Below, one piece after another: positions 1 to 63,855 of a stretch of 64,000 bases of DNA; within the stretch, counting starts at the first letter, position 1; every line of letters starts with the position of its first letter. The DNA comes from Escherichia phage ZCEC14. The stretch is taken from sequence record OP168898.1; one strand, given 5' to 3'. The translations under genes and the position numbers were made by a program. Under the pieces are notes generated by a model. It searched no databases and was not told where the DNA came from. It saw nothing but the letters and a program-made list of their open reading frames with translations.

Positions 1-57
1 ACGTGCGGTTCTTCGAGATGATGCTTCTCGTTTTGGTAAGCAGAAAGCATAAGTTGA

Positions 58-84
58 GGACTCCTTCGGGAGTCCTTTTTTATT
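58..84 (+). terminator. GC hairpin with UUCG loop followed by T-run (ggactcc-ttcg-ggagtcc-tttttt)
   Basis: Inverted repeat and T-tract read directly from sequence. Confidence 0.6.
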
Positions 85-105
85 TTCCAAAGACTGCACA
101 AAGTT

Positions 106-140
106 GTTTACAGTACGGTTCCTTTGTGATAGTATTATCT
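106..140 (+). promoter_or_regulatory. Early-type promoter cassette: GTTTAC -35-like box, then inverted repeat tttgtg/cacaaa spanning a gatagtatt -10-like element
   Basis: Motif shared with cassettes at 498, 57249, 57629, 57913 and 61276, each followed by ggagaataaaATG. Confidence 0.5.
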
Positions 141-162
141 TACACAAACAAAGGAGAATAAA

Positions 163-495
163 ATGAAAACTATTAATCTGAACGCTACAGTTAAAACTAA
201 ATGCTTCAATGGTAAATATAATGAAACTATGTGGTTCTTAATGGCAGTTGAAGGTGATATTATTGAAGTAGAAACAACAGAAGGTATGGGAACAGATTTC
301 ACCTTTACAATTCAAGTTCATAATTTCTTTACTGGTTGGATTTATGAATTGAATACAGTAATCGTTGGAAAAATTGAACAAAATGAATTAGGCGAATGGC
401 ATTATGTTACAGCTCGCCAACGTGCAGAACGTTTAATTGAGAAGATGAAAAAAGTTGGTAAACTTGACATGCAGCACTGGAAAGTAGTAAAATAA
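163..495 (+). CDS. Hypothetical small early protein (110 aa)
   Basis: ORF with RBS aaggagaataaaATG just downstream of promoter cassette. Confidence 0.6.
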   Translation: MKTINLNATVKTKCFNGKYNETMWFLMAVEGDIIEVETTEGMGTDFTFTIQVHNFFTGWIYELNTVIVGKIEQNELGEWHYVTARQRAERLIEKMKKVGKLDMQHWKVVK

Positions 496-497
496 TT

Positions 498-530
498 GTT
501 TACTTTGGTACAGGATATGATATTATATAC
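498..530 (+). promoter_or_regulatory. Early-type promoter cassette (GTTTAC then stem ggtacag/ctgtacc around gatattatat)
   Basis: Same architecture as cassette at 106. Confidence 0.45.
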
Positions 531-563
531 CTGTACCGCAATTAAACATCTCGGAGAATAAAA

Positions 564-929
564 ATGAACTACATCAACTTTGAACGTAAATATGTTTCTA
601 ATGGTATTGCAGGTTCTATTGATACCATCTGCCTTTGGAAACATCAAAATGGATCAGTATGCGAAATTGAACAGTATATGACTCCTAACTACGTTTATAT
701 GCGATTTGAAAATGGCATCACGGTTTCAATCACGAAAGAAGGTTCTTCCTTTAAAATCGCATTAGATGATGATTTCCGTCAACGTGATTTAGGTACTCAT
801 CCTTGTTGGAATGGCGTTAATCGCAAGCTTCTGGTTAAAACTTGGATTCGTCATATTCTGAGTAACAGAGCTAAACCTGAGCATCTTGAAGCAATCTTTG
901 ATGTAGTTCTTAACGAATTTGATATTTAA
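564..929 (+). CDS. Hypothetical protein (121 aa)
   Basis: ORF with RBS ggagaataaaaATG. Confidence 0.6.
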   Translation: MNYINFERKYVSNGIAGSIDTICLWKHQNGSVCEIEQYMTPNYVYMRFENGITVSITKEGSSFKIALDDDFRQRDLGTHPCWNGVNRKLLVKTWIRHILSNRAKPEHLEAIFDVVLNEFDI

Positions 930-4892: not shown

Positions 4893-4915
4893 GAATAAAC
4901 ACTAGAGAGGATATG

Positions 4916-7009
4916 ATGGAACTTATTACAGAATTATTTGACGAAGATACTACTCTTCCGATTACAAACTTAAATCCAAAGAAGAAAATACCGCAAATTT
5001 TTTCAGTTCATGTTGATGATGCAATTGAACAACCAGGCTTTCGTTTATGTACCTATACATCTGGAGGTGATACTAACCGTGATTTAAAGATGGGCGATAA
5101 AATGATGCACATTGTTCCTTTTACACTAACTGCTAAAGGTTCAATTGCTAAATTAAAAGGTCTCGGTCCAAGCCCAATTAATTACATCAATTCAGTTTTT
5201 ACTGTTGCAATGCAAACAATGCGTCAGTATAAAATTGATGCCTGTATGCTTCGTATTCTTAAGTCTAAAACTGCTGGTCAAGCTCGACAAATTCAAGTTA
5301 TTGCTGATAGACTTATCCGTAGTCGTTCAGGTGGCAGATACGTCCTTCTTAAGGAACTCTGGGACTATGATAAAAAGTATGCATATATTCTTATACATCG
5401 CAAAAATGTATCACTAGAAGACATTCCAGGAGTTCCGGAAATTAGTACCGAGCTCTTTACTAAAGTTGAATCGAAGGTCGGCGATGTTTATATCAATAAA
5501 GATACCGGAGCTCAAGTAACTAAAAATGAGGCAATTGCAGCATCTATTGCACAAGAAAATGATAAACGTTCTGACCAAGCTGTTATTGTTAAAGTTAAAA
5601 TTTCCCGTAGAGCAATTGCGCAAAGTCAATCATTAGAATCTTCTAGATTTGAAAGTGAATTATTCCAGAAGTATGAATCTACCGCAGCTAATTTTAATAA
5701 ACCTGCTACCGCTCCTTTAATTCCCGAAGCAGAAGAAATGAAGCTTGGAATTAATTCATTAGCTTCTAAAACTAAGGCAGCAAAAATTATTGCTGAAGGA
5801 ACTGCAAATGAACTTCACTATGACTATAAATTCTTTTCAAAAAGTGAGGTTGATGAAGTTTCTGAAAAAATTAAAGATGTAATTCTTAATGCGATTAAAA
5901 ATGAACCAACTACTTCAATAAAATGTTTAGAGAAATACGCAGCAGCTGTTAATAAATTCTTTGAAGAATATAAAGATAATTGGCTTGATAAACATAATAA
6001 AACCCGTAAAGGACAGCCAGATGAAGTCTGGGAAGAAATAACTAAAAATTCCTGGAACGCAGCAAAAACTAAATTCCTCAAACGAATGATTTATAGTTTT
6101 TCTGGAATTGGTGCAGGTCCAATGATTGATATTACTATTGCCCGTGATGGTTCTAAATATACTCCATCACAAAAGCGCGGCATTAGAGAATATTGTGGAT
6201 CAGGATATACTGACATCAATAATCTTCTTTTAGGCCGCTACAATCCAGAACGATATGATGTAATGAGTGAAAAAGAAATTGAATCTGCGATAAATAATTT
6301 AGATTCAGCTTTTGAAAATGGTGATCGTATACCAGAAGGCATTACAGTTTATCGTGCTCAAAGCATGACTGCTCCTATATACGAAGCACTAGTTAAAAAT
6401 AAAGTGTTCTATTTCAGAAATTTTGTATCTACTTCTTTAACTCCTATCATTTTTGGACGTTTTGGAATTACACATGCTGGTATCGGTCTTTTAGAACCAG
6501 AAGCTCGCAATGAATTAACAGTTGATAAAAATGAAGAAGGAATAACTATTAATCCAAACGAAATAAGAGCGTATAAAGAAAATCCTGAATACGTTAAAGT
6601 TCAAATAGGATGGGCAATTGATGGAGCTCATAAAGTTAATGTTGTATATCCAGGAAGTCTCGGAATAGCAACAGAAGCTGAAGTTATTCTACCGCGCGGA
6701 TTGATGGTCAAAGTTAATAAAATAACTGATGCTTCTAATAATGACGGAACAACATCTAATAATACAAAACTCATTCAAGCTGAAGTTATGACTACGGAAG
6801 AACTCACCGAATCAGTAATTTATGACGGTGACCGTCTAATGGAAACTGGCGAAGTAGTTGCAATGACAGGTGATATTGAAATAGAAGACAGAGTTGACTT
6901 TGCATCATTTGTTTCATCAAATGTTAAACAGAAAGTAGAATCATCTCTTGGAATTATTGCGTCTTGCATAGATATTACAAACATGCCTTACAAGTTCGTT
7001 CAAGGATAA
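4916..7009 (+). CDS. alt: Alt-like ADP-ribosyltransferase, copy 1 (697 aa from ATG 4916)
   Basis: N-terminus MELITELFDE (capsid-targeting/gp21-cleavage-like); C-terminal R...STS...EAE (VYRAQ, FVSTSL, EAEVILPRG) ART signature. Confidence 0.85.
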   Translation: MELITELFDEDTTLPITNLNPKKKIPQIFSVHVDDAIEQPGFRLCTYTSGGDTNRDLKMGDKMMHIVPFTLTAKGSIAKLKGLGPSPINYINSVFTVAMQTMRQYKIDACMLRILKSKTAGQARQIQVIADRLIRSRSGGRYVLLKELWDYDKKYAYILIHRKNVSLEDIPGVPEISTELFTKVESKVGDVYINKDTGAQVTKNEAIAASIAQENDKRSDQAVIVKVKISRRAIAQSQSLESSRFESELFQKYESTAANFNKPATAPLIPEAEEMKLGINSLASKTKAAKIIAEGTANELHYDYKFFSKSEVDEVSEKIKDVILNAIKNEPTTSIKCLEKYAAAVNKFFEEYKDNWLDKHNKTRKGQPDEVWEEITKNSWNAAKTKFLKRMIYSFSGIGAGPMIDITIARDGSKYTPSQKRGIREYCGSGYTDINNLLLGRYNPERYDVMSEKEIESAINNLDSAFENGDRIPEGITVYRAQSMTAPIYEALVKNKVFYFRNFVSTSLTPIIFGRFGITHAGIGLLEPEARNELTVDKNEEGITINPNEIRAYKENPEYVKVQIGWAIDGAHKVNVVYPGSLGIATEAEVILPRGLMVKVNKITDASNNDGTTSNNTKLIQAEVMTTEELTESVIYDGDRLMETGEVVAMTGDIEIEDRVDFASFVSSNVKQKVESSLGIIASCIDITNMPYKFVQG

Positions 7010-7012
7010 ATC

Positions 7013-9070
7013 ATGGAACTTATTACAGAATTATTTGACGGCGCTTCGGCGCCGGTTGTTAACTTAAATCCTAAGCATAAAATACCTCAAATTTTTGCTA
7101 TTCAAGCCGGCGAAGAAAGCGTGCTTCCTGGATTTAGATTTTGTACATACACCTCTGGTGGTGATACAAATAAAAACGTTAAGCCAGGTGATAAAATGAT
7201 GCATATCGTAATGATAGGTGTCAATGAGAAACTATCATTAGTTAAACTTAAAAACTTGGGTGGAAATCCAATTGGTGTCATTAATGCTGTTTTTGATACT
7301 GCTCTTCAAACAATGAAACAATATAAAATCGACGCATGCCTATTCCGCGTACTAAAAAGTAAAACAAATGGCGCAGCTCGTCAAATGCAAGTTATTGCTG
7401 ACCGTTTAGTACGTACTAAAGGAGCAGGTCGTTATGTTCTTTTAAAGGAAATCTGGGACTATGATAAAAAGTATGCATATATTATGGTTTACCGTAAAAA
7501 TGCCAATTTAGAAGACATTCCAGGTGTACCTCCTATTTCAACTGAGTTATTCACAAAAGTTGAATCGAAGGTCGGTGATGTTTATGTAGACGTTAAAACA
7601 GGTAATGCTGTTCCTAAAGCTGTCGCTGTTGCTGCTTCTATTGCTTTAGAAAATGATAAACGTACTGACCAAGCGGTTATTCAGAAAACTAAAATTAGTC
7701 GTCGATTAGCAGCGCAAGCTCAATATTCTACTGTCGATGCTTCACTTCAGGGTGATAGCTTCGCTGCCAAGAAATATCAAGAGTTTGAATCTAAAGTTCC
7801 GGTATATAAAGCAGAAGGACCAATGAACTCTGGCGTTATTCAGATTGGTTCAAACTTCAGCAAAGGAGCTATCGGTGGTATGAGGAGTGCTTCTCGTTTT
7901 AAATCTAACGATTATGAACTAGAAAACTTCCGAAATCATATTGCATTAGCCCATGCGCGTTTACGTGATCCATCTATCAAGTTGCAGAGCGATATAACAT
8001 ATCAAGGTTCTCAAGAATATTTAAAGAATAAAGAATTCTTTGATTATAAAACTGATAAAATTTTAAGCGATCTTGCTGATATTAATATTTCTAATAGCTT
8101 TGATGTTATTAAGAAAATTATCAATGATTTGGTTAAAGGTTCTAAAGCTACGCCAGATGAAAAGACAGCTATTATTCAATTTGTAATGAATGGCATTTAT
8201 AAATTGATTAATGAATCTGCTGCTCAGGCGTATGAATATGCAAGTACTGAAGTAACTCCAAAAGGATTAACTCAGGCTGAATCTGACGTAATTGAAGATT
8301 ATTGTGCTGATTCATATGTTGAAATGAACTCGTTCCTTTTGGGTAAACCAGATTCTACCCGTGAAGAATATATGGAACGAGCTATTAAACACATCGAGAC
8401 GTTGGATTCTGCCTTTGCCAAAGGATCAGTTCTTCCTCCAGGAACTACGCTTTATCGCGGACAAGAAGTTACATTTAAAACTTTGCGTCATAACATTGAA
8501 AATAAAATGTTCTATTTCAAGAACTTCGTATCCACATCGCTTAAACCAAATATCTTCGGTGAGCATGGTAAAAACTATATGGCTCTAGATGATTCCGGCG
8601 CAGTATTTTCTGGTGAAGGAGAAGGTTCCGTTGATGCAGAAGATTTGATGCATATGGGTAGTCATTCTACATATGCTAATGAAGATGCTGAAACTAGCGT
8701 GGGTATGGTAATTAAAGGAGCTGAACGAATCAAAGTTATCGTTCCAGGTCATTTATCAGGATTTCCATCAGAAGCTGAAGTTATTCTACCACGTGGAATT
8801 TTACTGAAGATTAATAAAGTAAGTACGTACTTTATGAAAGAAACTGCTTATAACAAGTATCTAATCGAAGGTACAATCGTTCCTCCTTCCGAACAATTAG
8901 AAGAATCGGTATATGATGGTGACCATCTGATGGAAACTGGTGAAGTTCGTCCAATGACTGGATTTAACCAATTCCTTGTAGAAGAATCAAAAGAAGAGGA
9001 AAACGAAGTTTCTCAAATCTTGGCTTCTTTGGTTAACATCAACGGAATGTCTAAAAAGTTCAAGATGTAG
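7013..9070 (+). CDS. Alt-like ADP-ribosyltransferase, copy 2 (685 aa), diverged paralog
   Basis: Same N-terminus MELITELFDG and same R/STS/EAEVILPRG motifs; middle region diverged from copy 1. Confidence 0.8.
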   Translation: MELITELFDGASAPVVNLNPKHKIPQIFAIQAGEESVLPGFRFCTYTSGGDTNKNVKPGDKMMHIVMIGVNEKLSLVKLKNLGGNPIGVINAVFDTALQTMKQYKIDACLFRVLKSKTNGAARQMQVIADRLVRTKGAGRYVLLKEIWDYDKKYAYIMVYRKNANLEDIPGVPPISTELFTKVESKVGDVYVDVKTGNAVPKAVAVAASIALENDKRTDQAVIQKTKISRRLAAQAQYSTVDASLQGDSFAAKKYQEFESKVPVYKAEGPMNSGVIQIGSNFSKGAIGGMRSASRFKSNDYELENFRNHIALAHARLRDPSIKLQSDITYQGSQEYLKNKEFFDYKTDKILSDLADINISNSFDVIKKIINDLVKGSKATPDEKTAIIQFVMNGIYKLINESAAQAYEYASTEVTPKGLTQAESDVIEDYCADSYVEMNSFLLGKPDSTREEYMERAIKHIETLDSAFAKGSVLPPGTTLYRGQEVTFKTLRHNIENKMFYFKNFVSTSLKPNIFGEHGKNYMALDDSGAVFSGEGEGSVDAEDLMHMGSHSTYANEDAETSVGMVIKGAERIKVIVPGHLSGFPSEAEVILPRGILLKINKVSTYFMKETAYNKYLIEGTIVPPSEQLEESVYDGDHLMETGEVRPMTGFNQFLVEESKEEENEVSQILASLVNINGMSKKFKM

Positions 9071-9101
9071 TTTACAAGTCACTCGTGTTGTGTTATAGTA
9101 G
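9070..9101 (+). promoter_or_regulatory. Early-type promoter candidate (GTTTAC then gttatagtag)
   Basis: Motif similarity to other cassettes; upstream of ORF 9131. Confidence 0.35.
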
Positions 9102-9130
9102 TCTTACTGACATAACATGAGGAACACAAA

Positions 9131-9421
9131 ATGAAATCTTCTTTGCGCTTTTTAGGTCAAGAACTTGTAGTTGAAGGCGTTATTCCTGCTGATAACGCTT
9201 TTAATGAAGCGGTTTACGACGAATTTATCAAAATTTTTGGAACAGATAAAAAGTTTGGAATTTTTCCTTCTGAAAATTTTTCAAAGCCAGAACAGACTGA
9301 AAACATTTTCCAAGGTGTAGTAACAGGTAAATTTGAGTCAGAAGCTCCGGTAAAAATTGAAGTTTATATTGAAGACAGTTTAGTTGCTTCAGTTGCTGCT
9401 TTTATTTCATTCCGTAAATAA
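9131..9421 (+). CDS. Hypothetical protein (96 aa)
   Basis: ORF with RBS gaggaacacaaaATG. Confidence 0.55.
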   Translation: MKSSLRFLGQELVVEGVIPADNAFNEAVYDEFIKIFGTDKKFGIFPSENFSKPEQTENIFQGVVTGKFESEAPVKIEVYIEDSLVASVAAFISFRK

Positions 9422-23260: not shown

Positions 23261-24543
23261 TATTCATCAATAATAATTTTTGGTAATTTAACACCTAATA
23301 AAACAGACAAATCTGAACGACCCGCCATTTTATCCATGTCTCCACCATCAATTATTCTTGCTTCTTTTTCATCTTTTGCTACGGTATAAGGATTTGCTGA
23401 TAAAGCATATCTAACTAATAAACCGATAGATGGTTGTAAGCTTTCTGGATCAACTACAACTTTAAATGCACCTACATGTTCAGGGTCATCTAAGTCAAGA
23501 CCTTCTGTATACGGAGCATAGAAAATTGATCCAACAATTTCTTTTTCGCCAATATTTTCTACCACACCAACGATTACATAATCTAATGGGCTGTTAGTAT
23601 CGCAATAAAGCGGTAAACCATTAGCTAAGAACCCATAGGCATTTTGTGAAAGATATTTATCATCTTCTGGTTTATGTTTTAACCAACCTGATGCAGCAAG
23701 AATCGCGGCGGCACGAGCTGAAGCAACACAGAACGTTGCTGTATAAGTTGATTCTTTTTGGATATGCGAAACCATTTCACACACCATTCGATATAATGAA
23801 CGACCAGCTTCAGGGGCAGATGCATAACTCAAATCAATGAATCCAGTATCAGTAATTCCTGTAACTTTATAGCGTTTTGACACTGTAATCAAAGACTGCA
23901 GAATATCTTTATTGATTTCATCTGCCATTTCAGTTGCAAGCAAATCTTCCAAGAAATTAGGAGCATCGAATCCATTTGCTTCTAAATCTTGTGCTAATTC
24001 GACTGTGATGCCAGTTTTAAGTTTACGAGATTTAACTGCGGTTTGCCATTTATTAATCTGGAATCTAGCATCCGCAATTTCACTATCAGAGCTTTCAAAT
24101 TTGCTTGTTACTGCAGCATCAGAAAATAGACGAACTTTTAAAAGAACAATTGCAATCTGAAGAGCTAATTCTAAATCGCTTTCTTCAATATCAGCAAATG
24201 GTGTATCTTCTAATACTTTATAAACGATATTATTATATTTGAATAAATCGCCTTTATTGAGAGTTAATTTAGACTCTTCTGTTAATTCTGTGATTTGTTC
24301 TCGGTCTACATATCCAGCTTCGCCAGCATAAGTAGCACCAGTTTTAAATGTAAATTCGTTGTCTGGGTTAAGGTATTTGATACCATAAAAAGCAGCAACA
24401 GGTTGATTAGTTCTTTGCGTTGCTACAATGTCAGAATATATTAATTTAGTGGTAGCGCGAGTCAAAGCAACGAGATTTGGGCGACCGATTGAGTTGCTAT
24501 TCGTTGTGGTTGATTCGCGCAGAAGTTCGTTGATTTTAGCCAT
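23260..24543 (-). CDS. 24: Capsid vertex protein gp24-like (427 aa)
   Basis: Length and synteny next to gene 23. Confidence 0.9.
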   Translation of the reverse strand: MAKINELLRESTTTNSNSIGRPNLVALTRATTKLIYSDIVATQRTNQPVAAFYGIKYLNPDNEFTFKTGATYAGEAGYVDREQITELTEESKLTLNKGDLFKYNNIVYKVLEDTPFADIEESDLELALQIAIVLLKVRLFSDAAVTSKFESSDSEIADARFQINKWQTAVKSRKLKTGITVELAQDLEANGFDAPNFLEDLLATEMADEINKDILQSLITVSKRYKVTGITDTGFIDLSYASAPEAGRSLYRMVCEMVSHIQKESTYTATFCVASARAAAILAASGWLKHKPEDDKYLSQNAYGFLANGLPLYCDTNSPLDYVIVGVVENIGEKEIVGSIFYAPYTEGLDLDDPEHVGAFKVVVDPESLQPSIGLLVRYALSANPYTVAKDEKEARIIDGGDMDKMAGRSDLSVLLGVKLPKIIIDE

Positions 24544-55246: not shown

Positions 55247-55777
55247 ATGTCGCAAGCTCTGCAACAAATTTTTAACCAAGCAAATACAACTAACTTTGTA
55301 GTATCAATACCACATAGTAATACTACATCTGCTTTTACTTTAAATGCTCAGTCAGTTCCTATTCCAGGAATTAGAATACCTGTTACTGATACCGTGACTG
55401 GGCCGTTTGGACTGGGCCGAGCACAACGTCCAGGTGTTACATTCGAGTATGATCCACTCATTGTGAGATTTATAGTTGATGAAGAACTTAAGTCGTGGAT
55501 AGGAATGTATGAATGGATGCTAGGAACTAGCAACTATCTTACAGGTGAAAATACTGCTCAAAAAACAGGTCCTGAATACATTACGCTTTACATCTTAGAT
55601 AATAGCAAAACTGAAATCGTGATGTCAATAAATTTTTATAAGCCTTGGGTTTCTGACCTGTCTGAAGTAGAATTTAGCTACACAGAAGATTCAGACCCGG
55701 CTTTAGTATGTACAGCAACGATTCCTTATACGTATTTTCAAGTAGAAAAAGATGGCAAAATTATAGCAGAAGTTTAA
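55247..55777 (+). CDS. 3: Tail completion / sheath stabiliser gp3-like (176 aa from MSQALQQ; track ORF extends 27 codons upstream)
   Basis: Length matches T4 gp3 when started at the internal ATG. Confidence 0.75.
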   Translation: MSQALQQIFNQANTTNFVVSIPHSNTTSAFTLNAQSVPIPGIRIPVTDTVTGPFGLGRAQRPGVTFEYDPLIVRFIVDEELKSWIGMYEWMLGTSNYLTGENTAQKTGPEYITLYILDNSKTEIVMSINFYKPWVSDLSEVEFSYTEDSDPALVCTATIPYTYFQVEKDGKIIAEV

Positions 55778-55801
55778 TGCTTCAGTTTCATGTGTTATAA
55801 T
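55776..55801 (+). promoter_or_regulatory. Middle-type promoter: MotA-box-like aatgcttca plus tgtgtTATAAT
   Basis: Motifs about 11 nt apart, upstream of gene 1. Confidence 0.5.
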
Positions 55802-55826
55802 CTTAACTAAATTTGAGGAGAAACAT

Positions 55827-56552: not shown

Positions 56553-57237
<685 letters not shown>

Positions 57238-57248
57238 TTTCACAAAGT

Positions 57249-57282
57249 TGTTTACATACTGATGAGGTAGTGATACTATTAT
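57249..57282 (+). promoter_or_regulatory. Early promoter cassette (GTTTAC; stem gatgag/ctcatc around gtgatactatta)
   Basis: Shared motif family, upstream of 57310. Confidence 0.55.
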
Positions 57283-57309
57283 CTCATCAAAATTAATTAG
57301 GAAAATAAA

Positions 57310-57618
57310 ATGAAAACATTTAAAGAATTTATCAATGAAGCGGCTGCGCCAAAGACATTCGTTATTAATACTCAGACGAGTCTTGACGATGAGTATGCAG
57401 AGGCAATTCTGAAGTCACTTGCTAAGAACGGCGTTGAAGTAATCGCTTCGGACTTTAAGAAAGGGGCTTCCGAGATGTTTATTTCTATAACTAAAGGATC
57501 TAAAGCTAAGATCAAATCATCATTCGGAGTTGCTCGTACCGATCAAATCGACAATCATGACTTTAAACAAACTGGCGTTAAACGGCAGAACACAATTGCA
57601 TCACGCGGAATAAAATAG
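57310..57618 (+). CDS. Internal-protein-like small basic protein (102 aa) with capsid-targeting-like N-terminus MKTFKEFINEA
   Basis: N-terminus resembles T4 IP capsid-targeting sequence (MKTYQEFIAEA as recalled) with an I-x-E gp21-cleavage-like site. Confidence 0.65.
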   Translation: MKTFKEFINEAAAPKTFVINTQTSLDDEYAEAILKSLAKNGVEVIASDFKKGASEMFISITKGSKAKIKSSFGVARTDQIDNHDFKQTGVKRQNTIASRGIK

Positions 57619-57628
57619 TTTATAAACC

Positions 57629-57660
57629 GTTTACTTTTAGATGGGGTAGTGATACTATTA
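57629..57660 (+). promoter_or_regulatory. Early promoter cassette (GTTTAC; stem gggta/taccc around gtgatactat)
   Basis: Downstream 45 nt nearly identical to cassette at 57913. Confidence 0.55.
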
Positions 57661-57686
57661 CCCTATCAACTACTGAGGAGAATAAA

Positions 57687-57909
57687 ATGAAAACATCTAA
57701 AGAATTTATTGTAGAAGCTAAAAGACGCGAAGACGAACTGCCTTTTGTTTCAAAAACCTTTGATGGAACATTGTCTGATTTTAAAAAATTCCTAATGATA
57801 AACTTGCTAAATTGGTTGGTTCTATCAGTGAAAAAGGTGGCAAGGTCACATTTTCTGCTCAAGGTGTTGCCAATCTTAAAAAACTTTTGAAAGCCGCTGG
57901 TGTTGAATA
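57687..57909 (+). CDS. Internal-protein-like ORF (MKTSKEFIVEA...) interrupted by a frameshift at an A6 run (57783-57788); continues in another frame to TAA 57907-57909
   Basis: With A7 instead of A6 the frame reads ...DFKKIPNDKLAKLVGSISEKGGKVTFSAQGVANLKKLLKAAGVE; the track ORF tail LMINLLNWLVLSV looks out-of-frame. Confidence 0.5.
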
Positions 57910-57912
57910 AAT

Positions 57913-57944
57913 CGTTTACATAGGGTTTTAGTTGTGATACTATT
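57913..57944 (+). promoter_or_regulatory. Early promoter cassette (GTTTAC; gtgatactattaccc)
   Basis: Near-identical to cassette at 57629. Confidence 0.55.
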
Positions 57945-57971
57945 ACCCTATCAACTACTGAGGAGAATAAA

Positions 57972-58157
57972 ATGAAACGTTGTGAATTAATTCGAAATGT
58001 TGCTATTGCAATTTCTGCTTCCGCTTTTAGTTTTTCAATGTTTGTTGGATTTATATGTGGATTATTAACTACAGCAGAAAATGTGTTTTCACTTGTAGTA
58101 GCATTTTTAATTGGTTTAATTGCTATCGTTATGGATAAAATTTCTAAAGGTGAATAG
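57972..58157 (+). CDS. Small membrane protein (61 aa, two predicted TM helices)
   Basis: Hydrophobic segments AIAISASAFSFSMFVGFICGLL and FSLVVAFLIGLIAIVM. Confidence 0.55.
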   Translation: MKRCELIRNVAIAISASAFSFSMFVGFICGLLTTAENVFSLVVAFLIGLIAIVMDKISKGE

Positions 58158-58926: not shown

Positions 58927-58999
58927 TGGGAATTAGCCAAGTTGGTAAGGCACTGGATTTTGATTCCAGGATGCAAAGGTTCGAGTCCTTTATTCCCAG
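58927..58999 (+). tRNA. tRNA-Gln (anticodon UUG)
   Basis: Cloverleaf: acceptor tgggaat/attccca, anticodon loop ttttgat, T-arm ggttcgagtcc. Confidence 0.85.
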
Positions 59000-59000
59000 C

Positions 59001-59087
59001 GCGAGAATGGTCAAATTGGTAAAGGCACAGCACTTAAAATGCTGCGGAATGATTTCCTTGTGGGTTCGAGTCCCACTTCTCGCACCA
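59001..59087 (+). tRNA. tRNA-Leu (anticodon UAA), class II long variable arm, CCA encoded
   Basis: Acceptor gcgagaa/ttctcgc, anticodon stem cagca/tgctg with loop cttaaaa. Confidence 0.85.
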
Positions 59088-59092
59088 AATTT

Positions 59093-59166
<74 letters not shown>

Positions 59167-59176
59167 ATTTAATTTA

Positions 59177-59250
59177 CTCCGTGTAGCTCAGTTTGGTAGA
59201 GCGCCTGATTTGGGATCAGGAGGTCCAAGGTTCAAATCCTTGTATGGAGA
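59177..59250 (+). tRNA. tRNA-Pro (anticodon UGG)
   Basis: Anticodon stem cctga/tcagg, loop tttggga; T-arm ggttcaaatcc. Confidence 0.8.
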
Positions 59251-59252
59251 CT

Positions 59253-59342
59253 GGAGGCGTGGCAGAGTGGTTTAATGCACCGGTCTTGAAAACCGGCAGT
59301 CGCTCCGGCGACTCATAGGTTCAAATCCTATCGCCTCCGCCA
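59253..59342 (+). tRNA. tRNA-Ser (anticodon UGA), long variable arm
   Basis: Acceptor ggaggcg/cgcctcc, anticodon stem ccggt/accgg, loop cttgaaa. Confidence 0.85.
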
Positions 59343-59347
59343 GTTTT

Positions 59348-59423
59348 GCTGATTTAGCTCAGTAGGTAGAGCAACTCACTTGTAATGAGAAGGTCGGCGG
59401 TTCGATTCCGTCAATCAGCACCA
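59348..59423 (+). tRNA. tRNA-Thr (anticodon UGU)
   Basis: Acceptor gctgatt/aatcagc, anticodon loop cttgtaa. Confidence 0.85.
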
Positions 59424-59424
59424 A

Positions 59425-59499
59425 GGCCCTGTAGCTGGAAGGTTCAAGCAAGCGACTCATAATCGCCAGATGGTGGTTCAATTCCACCCAGGGCCACCA
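59425..59499 (+). tRNA. tRNA with CAU anticodon (Ile2-type if lysidine-modified, otherwise Met)
   Basis: Acceptor ggccctg/cagggcc, anticodon loop ctcataa. Confidence 0.75.
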
Positions 59500-59511
59500 A
59501 ATTATGAATTA

Positions 59512-59598
59512 GGGGAGTTATCCCGTAGAGGTAGCGGTGTGGACTGTAAATCCATTGTCATTGCGACTCGGGTGGTTCGACTCCATCACTCCCCACCA
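59512..59598 (+). tRNA. tRNA-Tyr (anticodon GUA), long variable arm
   Basis: Acceptor ggggagt/actcccc, anticodon stem tgga/tcca, loop ctgtaaa. Confidence 0.75.
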
Positions 59599-59602
59599 AT
59601 TT

Positions 59603-59677
59603 GGATGTGTAGCTCAATGGCAGAGCGATCGCCTGTTAAGCGATTGGTTATAGGTTCGAATCCTATCACGTCCGCCA
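59603..59677 (+). tRNA. tRNA-Asn (anticodon GUU)
   Basis: Acceptor ggatgtg/cacgtcc (G-U pair), anticodon loop ctgttaa, T-arm ggttcgaatcc. Confidence 0.75.
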
Positions 59678-59681
59678 AATC

Positions 59682-59757
59682 CGAGGCATAGCTCAGAAGG
59701 AAGAGCAAGGACCTTCTAAGTCCTGGGTCGTAGGTTCGATCCCTACTGCCTCGACCA
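59682..59757 (+). tRNA. tRNA-Arg (anticodon UCU)
   Basis: Acceptor cgaggca/tgcctcg, anticodon stem ggacc/gtcc, loop ttctaag. Confidence 0.8.
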
Positions 59758-59775: not shown

Positions 59776-60126
59776 ATGAAAGGTAATGTTTATTTAGTAG
59801 TTCATGATTTAACATTCTATTTTAATCATAATGATACTGTTATTTCTGAACGTGTAATTAATTTACTTTATCAGCATGCAGATTATGTTTATGTTGAAAA
59901 CGAATTTGGACATTGGCAATTTATTAAAAATCGTTCATTTGGTTTAGATGGTTACGAATATTTTGAACGTAAAGACCTTTTAGATAAAATTCCGTTATCT
60001 ACACAATATCAAAATCATAAGTCTTTATATAAATGTCGGCTAATTCGAAATGCTGAATCTGCGTATGAAGCAATTGATTTATGGCGTAAACGCCGTGAAC
60101 AGATTGATGCTTTAAAAGAATATTAA
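59776..60126 (+). CDS. Hypothetical protein (116 aa)
   Basis: ORF with RBS gaggaaaatATG directly after tRNA cluster. Confidence 0.55.
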   Translation: MKGNVYLVVHDLTFYFNHNDTVISERVINLLYQHADYVYVENEFGHWQFIKNRSFGLDGYEYFERKDLLDKIPLSTQYQNHKSLYKCRLIRNAESAYEAIDLWRKRREQIDALKEY

Positions 60127-60465
60127 GAAACCGGGTCGCTACCGGTAAGTCGTCGGACTGATGTTCCCTGAGTAAGGACTAGCATTAACAAATCTTTGCG
60201 ATTGGTTAATGCCCCCTTACATCACAGCAGAAACGGCGCACCGAATTATCGATTCGAGGAAATATCTTTGCCGTAAGCCGAGTAGCGTTTTTGACGGAAC
60301 GTTCGGATATGGTCGAGATATGGCCTTTTAAAAATATTGAGTAGCGTCAACTGCTTAATAACCGGGTTCGAATCCCGGCGTTTCGTACAAACACTTGCCT
60401 TAGCAGGTGGAACCCCGACAAGGTTGCCGCAAGGCTTAGCCCCGACCGAAAGGTTGGGGCTTTTT
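60127..60465 (+). ncRNA. Structured non-coding region, candidate stable small RNA(s) analogous to T4 rnaC/rnaD, with tRNA-like T-arm and terminal hairpin+T-run
   Basis: GC-rich, stop-rich; accgggttcgaatcccggc T-arm-like element (60361-60380); terminator agccccgacc-gaaa-ggttggggc-ttttt at 60436-60465. Confidence 0.4.
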
Positions 60466-60555
60466 AGTTTGAATCATATAGAGAATGCTGTTACGGATAA
60501 TAACAAAGTAATAAATAATTAATAACCAACCGATAAATTATTTCAAGGATTTTAA

Positions 60556-61119
60556 ATGAAAACCTATGCCGAATTTTTAACCGAAGCAGCAAAATTACCA
60601 TCTGAAGCAGATCTTACTAAAGTATTCTTCCAATTGGACCCCAAAGACCGTGGTGATTTTCTTAAGTGGAAAGCTAAAGCTATTGAAATGTATAACATTG
60701 ATAATAGTTCTTTTACGATGAGTCAAGAAAATAAATTCAATAAAGCATTTTTCAAAATTTCTAAGAAATTGGCATCTGGCACTCAGGTTCCTAAATCTGC
60801 CTTAGCTACTCCTGAACGTGCACCTGTTAAAATTTCTAAGAATATGTTTGACACTAAAAAATATGTCAATGCTTTGAATAAAGCTCTTGATGCATTGGAT
60901 GATGCAAAGAAGGCAGCTCGTGATCTTCAAGACGTGTACACCGATTTTGATCGTAAAACTAAAGGTTCTATTTCAAATAGCGAACGCAATAGTGTAAGTG
61001 TTTATTCCGATAGCCTTGATGTTCTTGGCGATGCGTATACTGAAATTAAAAATCGTATTAACACTGCATCTAAGCTAAAAGCTGCTGCCGAAGCTATAAT
61101 AACTAAACTAGGTAAATAA
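60556..61119 (+). CDS. Internal-protein-like protein (187 aa) with capsid-targeting-like N-terminus MKTYAEFLTEA
   Basis: N-terminus close to T4 IP capsid-targeting sequence; size similar to IPIII (about 194 aa as recalled). Confidence 0.65.
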   Translation: MKTYAEFLTEAAKLPSEADLTKVFFQLDPKDRGDFLKWKAKAIEMYNIDNSSFTMSQENKFNKAFFKISKKLASGTQVPKSALATPERAPVKISKNMFDTKKYVNALNKALDALDDAKKAARDLQDVYTDFDRKTKGSISNSERNSVSVYSDSLDVLGDAYTEIKNRINTASKLKAAAEAIITKLGK

Positions 61120-61275
61120 TTTTAAATCCCTATCTAAATGATAGGGCTTTTTGGTATCTAGGCCTTTCTGGACCTCTCTAGGCATCATTTAGTTTCTACC
61201 CTTTATAATATATTATCCTATCTTTTAATTGCCCCTCCCTGCTCTAGAATTCCCTAAAATTTTTTTCACAAAACG

Positions 61276-61308
61276 GTTTACATCCCTGTTCTTCCATGGT
61301 ACTATACA
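61276..61308 (+). promoter_or_regulatory. Early promoter cassette (GTTTAC; ccatggtactatac)
   Basis: Shares leader caactatcaactactga and ggagaataaaATG with other cassettes. Confidence 0.5.
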
Positions 61309-61348
61309 ACTATCAACTACTGATACAGAAAACAACTTGGAGAATAAA

Positions 61349-61612
61349 ATGGATAATTACGGCGAACTGTTCAACTTCTTTATGAAATGCGTTTCAGAAG
61401 ATTTCGGTCGTACAGTGAATGATATTAAAGTTATCGGTCCTGACCATCCGATGTTTGAAACTTACGCAGTAATGGGTAATGAAGACGGTCAGTGGTATAC
61501 TGTAAAGGTTGTGATTAACATGTTCACTGCTGAAGGTTATGTTAAACTGTCTTCTAAAGTTTACCATGATAACGATGAAATCGCAGAAGAATATTTCAAT
61601 AATATGAAATAA
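61349..61612 (+). CDS. Hypothetical protein (87 aa from ATG 61349; track ORF start 61229 runs through the promoter)
   Basis: RBS ggagaataaaATG at 61349. Confidence 0.55.
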   Translation: MDNYGELFNFFMKCVSEDFGRTVNDIKVIGPDHPMFETYAVMGNEDGQWYTVKVVINMFTAEGYVKLSSKVYHDNDEIAEEYFNNMK

Positions 61613-61680
61613 TTGTGTACAAACACCAAGGATGGTGTTATTATAGACTTATCAAAACAAATACAGAAACGGAGAAATAA

Positions 61681-61857
61681 ATGACTACTTTAATTATTTG
61701 GTTTGACGAAAATGAAGAAACATACTGCGTGAACATTGGCGAAAGTCCAATGCCAGAATTTGAATCTTCAGATAAAAACTCGGTTGTATCTTGGGCTGAA
61801 GGTTATAAAGCAGCAAAAGGCGATGTTGAAATAGTTTACAAACTATCCGGAGTATAA
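61681..61857 (+). CDS. Hypothetical small protein (58 aa), not in ORF track
   Basis: ATG with RBS acggagaaataaATG; translation MTTLIIWFDENEETYCVNIGESPMPEFESSDKNSVVSWAEGYKAAKGDVEIVYKLSGV. Confidence 0.5.
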   Translation: MTTLIIWFDENEETYCVNIGESPMPEFESSDKNSVVSWAEGYKAAKGDVEIVYKLSGV

Positions 61858-61900
61858 TACTCTCATGGATTTTAAATTTTAATTAACCTAAGGAAATACT

Positions 61901-62535: not shown

Positions 62536-63150
62536 ATGAAAATGAAAATGCAAAGTGATTTCAATTCAATGTTTGAAGAATTCCAACGACAAGTTGATGT
62601 TCCAGACCAATTGCTAAATGCTCTTAAACGTATGGCAGAAGGGCGTAATTATTATTGGGGTTCTTCATATGAAACTGATGAAAGTCTTTCTGGAAGATTT
62701 TCCAGAGGTAAAAAGTCTTTAATACGTCCTGGAATACTTATTAACAGTATTGAATCAATTTATTCATTGACATGTGATTTTGATGTTGAATTTACTGATT
62801 TCATTTCTCCTGAATGGACAGTTTGTTATTTAAACGACGATTTTGATTATCTCGGTGTTTATAGTTTAAGTGACGCATGGTTTAAACGTAATTTACAAAA
62901 GTCAAATTTATTTTATATTGATACTACAGTAAAATTTCAGGGAAAGAAATATTTCTTTACTCTTATAGTTGATTCTGAAACGAAACATGAAAATAAACGT
63001 ATTCTTAGTAAAAGAAATATCTTGAATATTGTTGATGATCTTTTTGATAAATTAGTGGAAAATCCTAATTTTGAAAGTGATTTATTACTAGAAAAATTTG
63101 TTAAGGAATGTAGAGAATATGTCAAAACCATCACTATACCTTCCAAGTAA
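62536..63150 (+). CDS. Hypothetical protein (204 aa)
   Basis: ORF with RBS ggagtaaataggaATG. Confidence 0.55.
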   Translation: MKMKMQSDFNSMFEEFQRQVDVPDQLLNALKRMAEGRNYYWGSSYETDESLSGRFSRGKKSLIRPGILINSIESIYSLTCDFDVEFTDFISPEWTVCYLNDDFDYLGVYSLSDAWFKRNLQKSNLFYIDTTVKFQGKKYFFTLIVDSETKHENKRILSKRNILNIVDDLFDKLVENPNFESDLLLEKFVKECREYVKTITIPSK

Positions 63151-63511: not shown

Positions 63512-63855
63512 ATAAAGTCAAATATTCGTTTCCTGAGTCATTTTTAATTTTTGTTGTGGCGTTGACTGCAGCTCTTGCGGGTAGTCTTTTTGGATTGTTA
63601 ATTGACTGTATTATTTTAAACATCGATAGTTCAGCAATTATAACAGATGTTTGGAGTGAACTTCGTTTTACTATAGCGATTTCATTATTTTCATTCTTTG
63701 GTACCATACTATATTTTCATTATGATAATTTTAAAATAAATTGGCAAAGAAAAAAGGATTACAAAATACAATTAAAAGAATATAATAGCTACATGTCTTA
63801 TATTGAAAATGAATCAATGAAAGAGTTTGCGAGTGATTGCAGGAAATTAAAATGA
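63493..63855 (+). CDS. Small membrane protein (120 aa; two TM helices)
   Basis: Hydrophobic segments FLIFVVALTAALAGSLFGLLIDCIIL and TIAISLFSFFGTILYF. Confidence 0.5.
   Translation: MQKPKLNKVKYSFPESFLIFVVALTAALAGSLFGLLIDCIILNIDSSAIITDVWSELRFTIAISLFSFFGTILYFHYDNFKINWQRKKDYKIQLKEYNSYMSYIENESMKEFASDCRKLK

Follow-up and report, generated by a model that had tools for sequence, protein, structure and literature searches.

Repeated early-promoter cassettes at accessory gene boundaries of a T4-like phage and their likely part in gene exchange

Cassettes ahead of small early genes

The analysed stretch, called the window here, comprises 64,000 nucleotides of Escherichia phage ZCEC14 (OP168898.1) and is a segment of a Tequatrovirus (T4-like) genome with about 96-97% identity to T4 and many relatives. 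A reading made from the sequence alone had proposed that a family of at least six early promoter/stem-loop repeats marks the boundaries of accessory genes in it. The six copies are indeed present, all on the + strand, with GTTTAC starting at 106, 498, 57250, 57629, 57914 and 61276, and every copy is preceded by a stop codon and followed by a small early gene. The cassettes, the divergent member and the elements next to them are the following (IP, internal protein):

56..85, + strand: intrinsic terminator closing gene 30.9, stem AGGACTCC/GGAGTCCT with a T-run, directly before cassette 1; identical in T4
86..165, + strand: cassette 1, before the gene 30.8 homologue; GTTTAC 106-111, TGa 127-129, TAGTAT 130-135; two positions differ from the T4 orthologue
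119-127 and 148-156, + strand: hairpin arms of cassette 1, the 3' arm overlapping GGAG
153-163, + strand: RegB/Shine-Dalgarno sequence GGAGAATAAAA of cassette 1; ATG 163-165
478..566, + strand: cassette 2, before the gene 30.7 homologue; GTTTAC 498-503, TGa 518-520, TATTAT 521-526; identical in T4
507-514 (GGTACAGG) and 530-537 (CCTGTACC), + strand: hairpin arms of cassette 2
553-563, + strand: leader GGAGAATAAAA of cassette 2; ATG 564-566
9050..9133, + strand: divergent member, before the alt.-3 homologue; GTTTAC 9070-9075, TGt, TATAGT 9094-9099
about 9082-9121, + strand: long hairpin of the divergent member, enclosing the -10
57230..57331, + strand: cassette 3, from 57B to the ip7-like internal protein gene; GTTTAC 57250-57255, TACTAT 57274-57279; the conserved block extends into the first ~20 nt of the ORF
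57260-57269 and 57280-57289, + strand: hairpin arms of cassette 3
57300-57310, + strand: leader GGAAAATAAAA of cassette 3; ATG 57310
57609..57708, + strand: cassette 4, from the ip7-like gene to a 67-aa IP-like ORF; GTTTAC 57629-57634, TACTAT 57653-57658
57640-57667, + strand: hairpin of cassette 4, followed by GGAGAATAAAA at 57677-57687; ATG 57687
57894..57977, + strand: cassette 5, before the trna.4 homologue; GTTTAC 57914-57919, TACTAT 57938-57943
57920-57926 and 57945-57951, + strand: hairpin arms of cassette 5
57962-57972, + strand: leader GGAGAATAAAA of cassette 5; ATG 57972
61256..61351, + strand: cassette 6, before the e.8 homologue; GTTTAC 61276-61281, TGg, TACTAT 61300-61305; -10 without hairpin, longer leader with acaactatcaactactgatacaga, GGAGAATAAAA 61339-61349, ATG 61349; a subtype with about seven repeats in T4
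61595..61683, + strand: weaker early-type promoter, before a 58-aa ORF; GTGTAC 61615-61620, TGt, TATTAT 61639-61644
61681, + strand: ATG of the 58-aa ORF, which sits at the position of T4 e.7

Cassettes 4 and 5 had been described as almost identical, and the segments 57649-57692 and 57934-57977 in fact agree over 44 nt with 100% identity. The divergent member at 9070, formerly listed as a possible copy, belongs to the family by its promoter and its hairpin (fold z-score -3.0) but not by its leader, since GAGGAACACAAA-ATG is not the RegB consensus. Cassettes occupy nearly all of the intergenic space.

Promoter architecture and the joint leader

The motif search that the sequence-only reading had called for singles out these sites: in the window the pattern GTTTAC-N14-16-TGnTAnnAT matches exactly the six copies against 0.13 expected, none of 100 shuffles reaches six, and the - strand of the window holds 0 matches. 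Across the whole T4 genome the same pattern matches 31 times on the early strand and never on the opposite one. Taken by itself, the loose motif GTTTAC-N10-20-TAnnAT is barely over chance (7 matches, 2.9 +/- 1.6 expected) and therefore unconvincing, so that the tighter architecture was needed, and a generic sigma-70 scan of the window (40 matches, 30 expected) is uninformative because its DNA is A/T-rich.

The T4 early-promoter class is defined by UP, -35, TGn and -10 elements (PMC2988021). All six copies carry the -35 GTTTAC (TTTACW), a spacer of 16-17 nt, TGn and a -10 of the form TAnnAT; all lie on the + strand before early genes, with the ATG 21-37 nt downstream. Hexamers, spacing, TGn and orientation are those of the T4 early promoters (Wilkens and Rueger; Hinton 2010, PMC2988021), and nothing material sets the window apart from T4, apart from being a different Tequatrovirus isolate whose IP locus holds the ip7-like gene and the 67-aa ORF where T4 has ipI. 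The copies are near-identical to T4 upstream of 30.8, 30.7, ipI, trna.4 and e.8. Two of these T4 sites, those of ipI and trna.4, were annotated in 1985 in record X03016 as PE2 and PE1, with -35, -10 and overlapping stem-loops; these early-promoter calls carry the label 'putative', and their counterparts in the window are the copies at 57250 (PE2) and 57914 (PE1). Predicted early promoters are annotated at the same sites in the record of phage fPS-2. The full T4 record AF158101 is without promoter features, and the text of the DksA RNA-seq and RegB papers, where mapped T4 early promoters were sought, does not mention these genes. Judged by their sequence, the repeats are standard T4-like early promoters, many with a hairpin, which end in a joint ribosome-binding/RegB site. 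The claim of an early promoter with a stem-loop is thereby supported, and the finding itself is one already known for T4-like phages. Each promoter module, with an A-rich region upstream of its -35, would be a strong sigma-70 promoter of the T4 type, at which host RNA polymerase would initiate immediately upon infection.

In T4 middle promoters a MotA box, (a/t)(a/t)(a/t)TGCTTtA, takes the place of the -35 and precedes the -10 by 12 +/- 1 bp. TGCTT at -30 occurs in none of the six copies. Such a box (taaTGCTTca) does lie at 55772, which is the gene 1 middle promoter, PM1 of X03016, and not a member of the family. Another look-alike, at 61834, was rejected as an intact member because only 13 nt separate its GTTTAC from TATAAT, which is the wrong spacing; it appears to be a rearranged T4 e.6 promoter. 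The site at 23572 (GATTAC) and other one-mismatch matches within late genes are attributed to chance.

The leader is likewise enriched. Within the window, GGAGAATAAAATG has six matches at no more than one mismatch against 0.25 expected, and GGAGRAYARAA has five against 0.28, all within cassettes. A common leader end had been claimed for the family, and it is found in five of the six copies: GGAGAATAAAA occurs exactly at 153, 553, 57677, 57962 and 61339, ends as GGAGAATAAAA-TG and doubles as the Shine-Dalgarno sequence, whereas the copy at 57250 has GGAAAATAAAA and not GGAG. The copy at 498 has a single additional A ahead of its ATG.

What the sequence-only reading had not noticed is that this leader is the target consensus of the RegB/S1 nuclease, the 11-nt cleavage consensus of T4 being GGAGAAUAAAA (Durand et al. 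2006, PMC1702504). In five cassettes exact GGAGAAUAAAA stands where the Shine-Dalgarno sequence of an early gene belongs, and in predicted folds the site is single-stranded on the promoter's own transcript. Two copies differ from RegB/S1 targets: the one at 57250 has GGAA, which RegB cuts poorly (PMC1702504), and in the one at 106 read-through RNA would pair the GGA within the hairpin's 3' arm. Reviews describe regB as widespread among T4-related phages; its locus falls outside the window. Thus GGAGAAUAAAA-UG would serve both as Shine-Dalgarno sequence and as an optimal target of the phage RegB/S1 endoribonuclease, which would shut the early messages off a few minutes into infection.

The hairpin around the -10

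An inverted repeat enclosing the -10 had been ascribed to the whole family. Fold z-scores against shuffles bear this out for five of the six copies (-1.9 at 106, -4.3 at 498, -3.2 at 57250, -2.5 at 57629 and -1.9 at 57914), while the copy at 61276 has no inverted repeat around its -10 (z -0.5). The full composite of promoter, stem-loop, Shine-Dalgarno sequence and start codon is accordingly found in five of six copies, and at 9070 as well. The hairpin, whose arms lie in the spacer (5') and just past the -10 (3'), is an optional part, which had also gone unnoticed: it is present in about one quarter to one third of T4-type early promoters and about two thirds of those in T4 do without it. Since it is missing at 61276 and from most T4 early promoters and is broken in natural hybrids, it cannot be essential.

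Where arms are present, they fit each other. In T4 a fold of -8 kcal/mol or below is attained by 19% of native left/right combinations and by 1.4% of chimeric combinations (p = 0.016), and in the window by 33% versus 1.4% (p = 0.046). The hairpin of cassette 2 is retained and extended in Dhakavirus and Mosigvirus relatives; compensatory changes were sought in the orthologous 30.7 hairpin of distant relatives and none was found, the arms being conserved and extended. The start site is predicted within the 3' arm or beyond it, so that only read-through RNA from upstream can form the hairpin. From this predicted +1 onwards the leaders have folding energies of 0 to -0.8 kcal/mol, and the promoter's own transcript would begin with an unstructured leader of 21-31 nt.

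The original role given to PeSL stem-loops is that of transcription terminators or attenuators which insulate a gene from upstream transcription, and the present inverted repeats may be of this kind. The PE1 stem-loop is entered in record X03016 as 'pot. IpI terminator', the stem-loop of one RB49/phi1 PeSL was assayed for termination in a lacZ reporter by Arbiol et al. (PMC2839356), who call PeSL stem-loops effective terminators, and the sense RNA is more stable than the antisense in all six hairpins, because of G-U pairs. However, none of the five -10-enclosing hairpins has a T-run and none of the five is called by a terminator scan; their stems are A/T-rich, at -12 to -20 kcal/mol; Arbiol et al. 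(PMC2839356) themselves note that stems of the T-even elements are weaker and A/T-rich; and a canonical terminator already stands ahead of cassette 1, this separate element at 56-85 being the only one with both a G+C-rich hairpin and a U-tract. Without a U-tract and uncalled by the scan, these hairpins make a PeSL-type terminator role doubtful for the present copies, and we regard it as less likely than not.

A further suggestion, that the palindromes act on the DNA as a cruciform or a protein operator and help to shut the early promoters off, draws on the fact that the repeats are centred on the -10 and that the shut-off mechanism is described as incompletely understood (PMC3014915, PMC2988021). 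Against it, the arm sequences are unrelated among copies, so there is no common operator, the G-U pairs make the structure strand-specific and point to RNA, and most early promoters are shut off too, though without a repeat. We hold an action on the DNA to be extremely improbable.

On the RNA, the most likely role of the hairpin would be to mark or shield the upstream message at its 3' end or to attenuate read-through weakly, and in the copy at 106 it would also mask the ribosome-binding site on read-through RNA. One may go further and take the inverted repeats as a device separating read-through from promoter-proximal transcripts: it would cap and stabilise the upstream message and hide the ribosome-binding/RegB site where it reaches GGAG, and the promoter's own transcript would remain open. 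Perhaps the melted or structure-prone -10 core could also be a preferred crossover point, with a preference exceeding the effect of short identity alone. We consider this extended account unlikely.

Exchange of genes at the cassettes

The explanation that we find highly probable is that each copy is a self-contained T4-like early-expression cassette of promoter, optional hairpin and leader, and that crossover between non-allelic copies turns over the genes between them. The same sequence of 12-110 nt is repeated at many gene boundaries, and the highly active homologous recombination of the phage would occasionally join non-allelic cassettes, so deleting, inserting or swapping the small accessory gene that lies between. 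The new neighbour would always retain a working promoter and ribosome-binding site.

Gene content around the cassettes was compared with related phages, and genes are lost or swapped there; gene loss, replacement and hybrid cassettes in the relatives place crossovers inside the cassettes, in line with the earlier proposal that the repeats are recombination substrates. In phage Manna gene 30.8 is missing and cassette 1 is fused to the 30.7 ORF, with alignments overlapping by the 15-nt common leader; the junction is unique among 529 matching records. These alignments support the view that Manna lost gene 30.8 through a crossover in the common leader. In phage PhiZZ23 an unrelated gene stands between cassettes 1 and 2. 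The IP locus, from 57B to trna.4, holds one to four genes in the eight phages compared, and in these eight every end of collinear homology lies at 57222-57331, 57692 or 57914-57931. Cassette 4 has 97% identity over 64 nt with the cassette before trna.4 in phages R5505 and JK08. The ip7 gene, together with its 3' half-cassette, follows a different 5' half in each of the window, T2 and VEc74, and the hairpin is broken in the two ip7 hybrid cassettes, which puts the crossover in the common -10 core GTGATACTATTA.

Could the similarity of the copies be purely functional, with selection holding promoter and ribosome-binding/RegB site near consensus and recombination incidental to gene turnover? Conservation among the copies is confined to known functional motifs (-35, TGn/-10 and RegB site), the spacers vary and the mean column identity is 59%. 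Any mechanism would be expected to leave breakpoints at gene boundaries, since recombinants survive only with intact genes; many of the breakpoint observations share ancestry and so represent few independent events; and other indels in the window use non-promoter repeats, namely the leader TGCAGGAAATTAAAATG and the terminator tails GGGCTTTTT, so that any short repeat may serve. Against convergence stand the 44-nt exact repeat, which covers leader bases without a known consensus role, hybrid cassettes with crossovers within the -10 core, a Manna deletion junction precisely within the common leader and long families of identical leaders throughout T4. We judge convergence alone to be quite improbable.

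A dedicated site- or structure-specific recombination system of the integron type, in place of general homologous recombination, would fit the clustering of crossovers in a 12-nt core inside the hairpin loop; the possibility has been raised for PeSLs, where recurrent GGGC/GCCC motifs were cited at T4 deletion end points (Arbiol et al., PMC2839356). But in the window the cassettes have no associated recombinase, the junctions vary within cassettes (-10 core, leader, ORF start), unrelated short repeats also hold junctions, and the arm sequences differ among copies. Such a system is very unlikely, and crossover between cassettes would proceed by plain homologous recombination.

Our cassettes resemble morons and integron gene cassettes in that small accessory genes move together with the signals for their expression. 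To our knowledge, morons are not thought to move via regulatory sequences, and integrons depend on attC sites and an integrase. In the present cassettes crossover takes place in the repeated regulatory sequence itself, and there is no evident recombinase.

The closest published parallel, which the sequence-only reading did not notice, is the PeSL and T-even IP locus phenomenon. PeSLs (Arbiol et al. 2010, PMC2839356; Comeau et al. 2014, PMC4122927) are likewise composites of promoter, stem-loop, Shine-Dalgarno sequence and ATG; like the present cassettes they are intergenic, lie in hyperplastic regions beside variable small ORFs, may have a stem that overlaps the -10, and contain indel and replacement junctions within the element. 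In the PeSL model, recombination between neighbouring elements also gives rise to excised mini-circles. The model was published for T4 and PST as well, whose consensus TTTACW-N17-TAYWAT (PMC2839356, PMC4122927) every copy here fits, although the PST figure places the stems just upstream of the promoter and here they enclose the -10. PeSLs of RB49/phi1 differ more, having near-perfect TTGACA/TATAAT boxes and G/C-rich GGGG...CCCC stems that were assayed as terminators, whereas the stems here are A/T-rich, without U-tracts and missing from some copies; Arbiol et al. (PMC2839356) term the T-even elements analogues and not homologues of PeSLs. In Repoila et al. 1994, as cited in PMC2839356 and PMC4122927, the same 57B-trna.4 locus is described with a variable set of IP genes and conserved promoter-containing intergenic blocks, and the ip7 hybrid cassettes may or may not have been reported before. 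Since the principle was already set out in the literature of 1994-2014, the window contributes no new concept but further natural examples, namely the ip7 hybrid cassettes and the deletion of 30.8 in Manna.

The cassettes would explain how T4-like phages combine a conserved core with rapid exchange of small early genes, such as those for internal proteins directed against host defences: with every gene exchanged would come a strong promoter, a ribosome-binding site and an off-switch of its own. In annotation, the cassettes provide reliable gene starts and an early-class assignment for many 'hypothetical' ORFs. At the promoter of the 58-aa ORF, T4 homology stops exactly at 61644, the end of its -10.

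Early promoters of the T4 type

The first 3 kb of the window and the stretch from 56.5 to 62.5 kb are ~95-97% identical to hundreds of Tequatrovirus (T4-like) genomes. Aligned against complete T4, the window is found to span gene 30.9, ligase, alt, the baseplate, head and tail genes, 1, 57A, 57B, the internal protein (IP) locus, the tRNA cluster and the e.x genes, and its early-transcribed strand is the + strand. The cassettes considered here consist of an early promoter, an optional hairpin round its -10 element and a leader, and are named by the start of their GTTTAC. A search of the window with the pattern GTTTAC-N14-16-TGnTAnnAT retrieved exactly the six copies of the sequence-only reading, all on the + strand and at the positions it gave (6 matches vs 0.13 expected; 0/100 shuffles attain six). 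The leader GGAGAATAAAATG has 6 matches with up to 1 mismatch (0.25 expected), and the enrichment of a loose motif in the window is marginal (7 matches vs 2.9 expected).

ORFs following the six cassettes (cassettes on the + strand)
163-495, 30.8 homologue, after copy 106
564-929, 30.7 homologue, after copy 498
57310-57618, ip7-like internal head protein, after copy 57250
57687-57890, 67-aa IP-like ORF, after copy 57629
57972-58157, trna.4 homologue, after copy 57914
61349-61612, e.8 homologue, after copy 61276

The near-identity of copies 57629 and 57914 amounts to 44 identical bases (57649-57692 = 57934-57977). The inverted repeat claimed to enclose the -10 element in every copy is present in five, with fold z-scores of -1.9, -4.3, -3.2, -2.5 and -1.9; the sixth, copy 61276, has none there (z -0.5). 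The possible copy at 9070 has a different leader, although its promoter elements (GTTTAC, TGt and TATAGT) are there and its hairpin is strong (z -3.0). A look-alike at 55772 has a MotA box (taaTGCTTca) correctly spaced from TATAAT and matches in position the middle promoter PM1 of T4 record X03016; we therefore class it as a middle promoter and exclude it from the family. The region upstream of gene 1 (55772-55826) combines this box with a near-early -35 GTTTAA and TGtTATAAT, and the X03016 record has two annotations at the site, PM1 and an "early promoter consensus sequence".

Comparison with T4 and its relatives supports the proposal that the cassettes are early promoters of the T4 type. With hexamers defined as in E. 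coli, they have TTTACW and TAYWAT, spaced by 16-17 nt, with TGn before the -10, which matches both the UP/-35/TGn/-10 class of T4 early promoters (PMC2988021) and the T4/PST consensus TTTACW-N17-TAYWAT (PMC4122927). The same pattern has 31 matches on the early strand of complete T4 and 0 on the other, and ahead of 30.8 and 30.7 the T4 sequences either match those of the window fully or differ at 2 positions. Copies 57250 and 57914 correspond to the T4 sites PE2 (before ipI) and PE1 (after ipI), both "putative" early promoters in X03016, where each is overlapped by a "pot. stem-loop structure", the one at PE1 being labelled "pot. IpI terminator". Predicted early promoters are also annotated at the equivalent sites in the fPS-2 record. 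The hairpin-less subtype of copy 61276 (…tggTACTATacaactatcaactactgataca…GGAGAATAAAATG) occurs about seven times round the T4 genome.

The common end of the leader, GGAGAAUAAAA-UG, comprises a Shine-Dalgarno sequence and the exact 11-nt consensus reported by Durand et al. for efficient cleavage in T4 by the phage endoribonuclease RegB with ribosomal protein S1, of general form GGAGRAYARAA (PMC1702504). This form has five matches in the window (0.28 expected), 5/5 inside cassettes. RegB acts on early messages during the first minutes of infection, cutting them within the ribosome-binding site (PMC3014915), and we infer from the consensus that it would cleave cassette leaders; the leader of copy 57250 has GGAA, which is reported to be cut poorly (PMC1702504).

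The hairpin over the -10 element

We folded the spacer of each promoter against the 20 nt downstream of its -10 and compared these native pairs with chimeric ones, in which the left arm came from one promoter and the right flank from another. Native pairs reached -8 kcal/mol or lower in 19% of cases in T4 (chimeric 1.4%; Mann-Whitney p = 0.016) and in 33% in the window (chimeric 1.4%; p = 0.046). Since native pairs outpair chimeric ones, the hairpin is a genuine feature of a subclass of early promoters, approximately a quarter to a third of them. The arms vary among copies (CCTTTGT, GGTACAGG, TGATGAGGTA, GATGGGGTA, ATAGGGT), and therefore a common protein operator is unlikely; copies 57629 and 57914 have a common 3' arm, TACCCTATC, which pairs with a different 5' arm in each.

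In 6/6 hairpin-bearing cassettes G-U pairs give the sense RNA greater stability than the antisense RNA, and this strand bias points to a role of the hairpin in RNA. The predicted start site lies ~7 nt past the -10, inside the 3' arm, and the hairpin is predicted to form only in read-through RNA from upstream; the transcript that starts at the promoter itself has a leader of 21-31 nt, which folding predicts to be without structure. No T-run follows the hairpins enclosing the -10, and an intrinsic terminator scan calls none of them. The absence of terminator-type U-tracts makes the "terminator" label doubtful for these copies. A canonical terminator lies at 56-85, just ahead of the first cassette. 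The hairpin probably caps or stabilises the upstream message or mildly attenuates read-through, and in some copies it may mask a ribosome-binding/RegB site on read-through RNA. In copy 106 the GGA of the ribosome-binding site is within the 3' arm. Several T4 (AF158101) early promoters, for example at 62797, 65413 and 8218 and by position upstream of regB, denV and dexA, have a GGAG ribosome-binding site in this arm, predicted to be hidden in read-through RNA and free in the promoter's own transcript.

Recombination within the cassettes

The sequence-only reading regarded the repeats as potential recombination substrates, and comparison of flanking genes among related phages reveals gene loss, gene replacement and hybrid cassettes with junctions inside cassettes. 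Both the 106 and the 498 cassette flank 30.8 in ~450 related genomes. Salmonella phage Manna is without 30.8, and its first cassette continues directly into the 30.7 coding sequence; its two alignments, to 1-167 and 553-1265 of the window, have in common the 15 nt GGAGAATAAAATGAA, which both leaders contain. As this junction is found in 1 record among 529 matches, it appears to have arisen recently, by deletion between the two cassettes. In Citrobacter phage PhiZZ23 an unrelated 122-aa gene replaces 30.8 (homology stops at 183 and restarts at 481), and in more distant genera homology starts precisely at the GTTTAC of the second cassette, position 498.

At the IP locus the number of genes between 57B and trna.4 is one in T4, fPS-2 and AugustSocin and two in T2, R5505, JK08 and the window, while VEc74 has four. 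In 7/7 relatives the homology that is collinear with the window stops at 57330/57331 and restarts at 57914 or 57931; T2 shares only 57222-57692, and VEc74 shares everything from 57266 on. The block ending at 57331 extends ~20 nt into the ORF, where IP genes have a common N-terminal sequence (MKTFKEF…). The most telling recombination evidence in the analysis is that ip7 with its 3' half-cassette (tatctcatcaaaattaattaggaaaataaaATG) is attached to three different 5' halves: a PE2-type arm in the window (hairpin intact, -10.9 kcal/mol), a PE1-type arm in T2 (broken, -1.6) and a 57629-type arm in VEc74 (broken, -0.5). The crossovers must therefore, on sequence, have been located in the common core GTGATACTATTA, which contains TGn and the -10. 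Together with the Manna deletion, these hybrids appear to bear out the substrate claim. The neighbouring 67-aa ORF (57687-57890) matches an internal-virion-protein family only in the N-terminal 41/92 positions; its VEc74 counterpart has 74 aa, the aligned lengths are 4 nt apart, and it may be a frameshifted internal-protein gene.

Gene-boundary breakpoints are expected in any surviving recombinant, the cassettes fill almost all intergenic space and many breakpoint observations are of common ancestry; the argument rests on the specific junctions (Manna, hybrid cassettes) and not on counts. Relative to T4, the window has an insertion at 60465-61150, right after the rnaC terminator: a module comprising a 187-aa ORF without assigned function (60556-61119) and a terminator of its own (61128-61146). 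Both of its junctions lie in terminator tails GGGCTTTTT, which recall GGGC motifs described for the end points of deletions in T4 (PMC2839356). T4 e.2 is missing (window 63834-63855), the end of e.3 being joined to the start of nudE within the leader TGCAGGAAATTAAAATG, of which T4 has copies before both e.2 and nudE. In both cases the junctions lie in repeats that are not promoters, which suggests that any short repeated regulatory sequence can act as a crossover site; this favours plain homology-driven recombination over a dedicated system. The e.2 loss adds a second example of a gene deleted between repeated translation-start leaders, this time with no promoter. At the position of T4 e.7 the window has a different gene, and there are two breaks in homology: one at 61644, where a -10 has its final base, and one at 61885, within the leader of the following gene.

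Published systems and other differences from T4

Promoter-early stem-loops (PeSLs), in which an early promoter, stem-loop, Shine-Dalgarno sequence and start codon act as a recombination linker at the borders of variable small ORFs, were described in RB49 and phi1 (Arbiol et al., 2010; PMC2839356) and extended to T4/PST and vibriophages (Comeau et al., 2014; PMC4122927). In the account of Arbiol et al., Repoila et al. (1994) saw "PeSL-like sequences" at the two T-even IP loci, built on T4 early promoters, their stem-loops being weaker and A/T-rich, and the window cassettes fit the description as given there exactly; Arbiol et al. consider the T-even elements analogues, not homologues, of the RB49 PeSLs (PMC2839356). 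Thus the phenomenon is already known, with the PE2/PE1 stem-loops in the 1985 T4 record and the RegB/S1 reading of the leader published (PMC1702504). The original observation of the repeats is confirmed, and sequence comparison supports its interpretation. What we add is modest, namely the clean natural deletion in Manna, the three-way hybrid cassettes that set a crossover in the -10 core, and a quantified -10 hairpin that is facultative, RNA-strand-biased and, lacking a U-tract, questions the "terminator" label.

The window also has tandem full-length alt-like ORFs (4913-7009, 698 aa; 7013-9070, 685 aa), the first only ~68-80% identical to the DNA of the T4 alt region; in T4 a single alt gene is accompanied by the short remnants alt.-1 and alt.-2, described in the T4 record as an old partial duplication. 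The tRNA cluster (58927-59757) has ten genes (Gln, Leu, Gly, Pro, Ser, Thr, Met, Tyr, Asn, Arg) vs eight in T4, and in place of the T4 homing-endonuclease gene segB, missing from this region, there is a 116-aa ORF without assigned function at 59776-60126.
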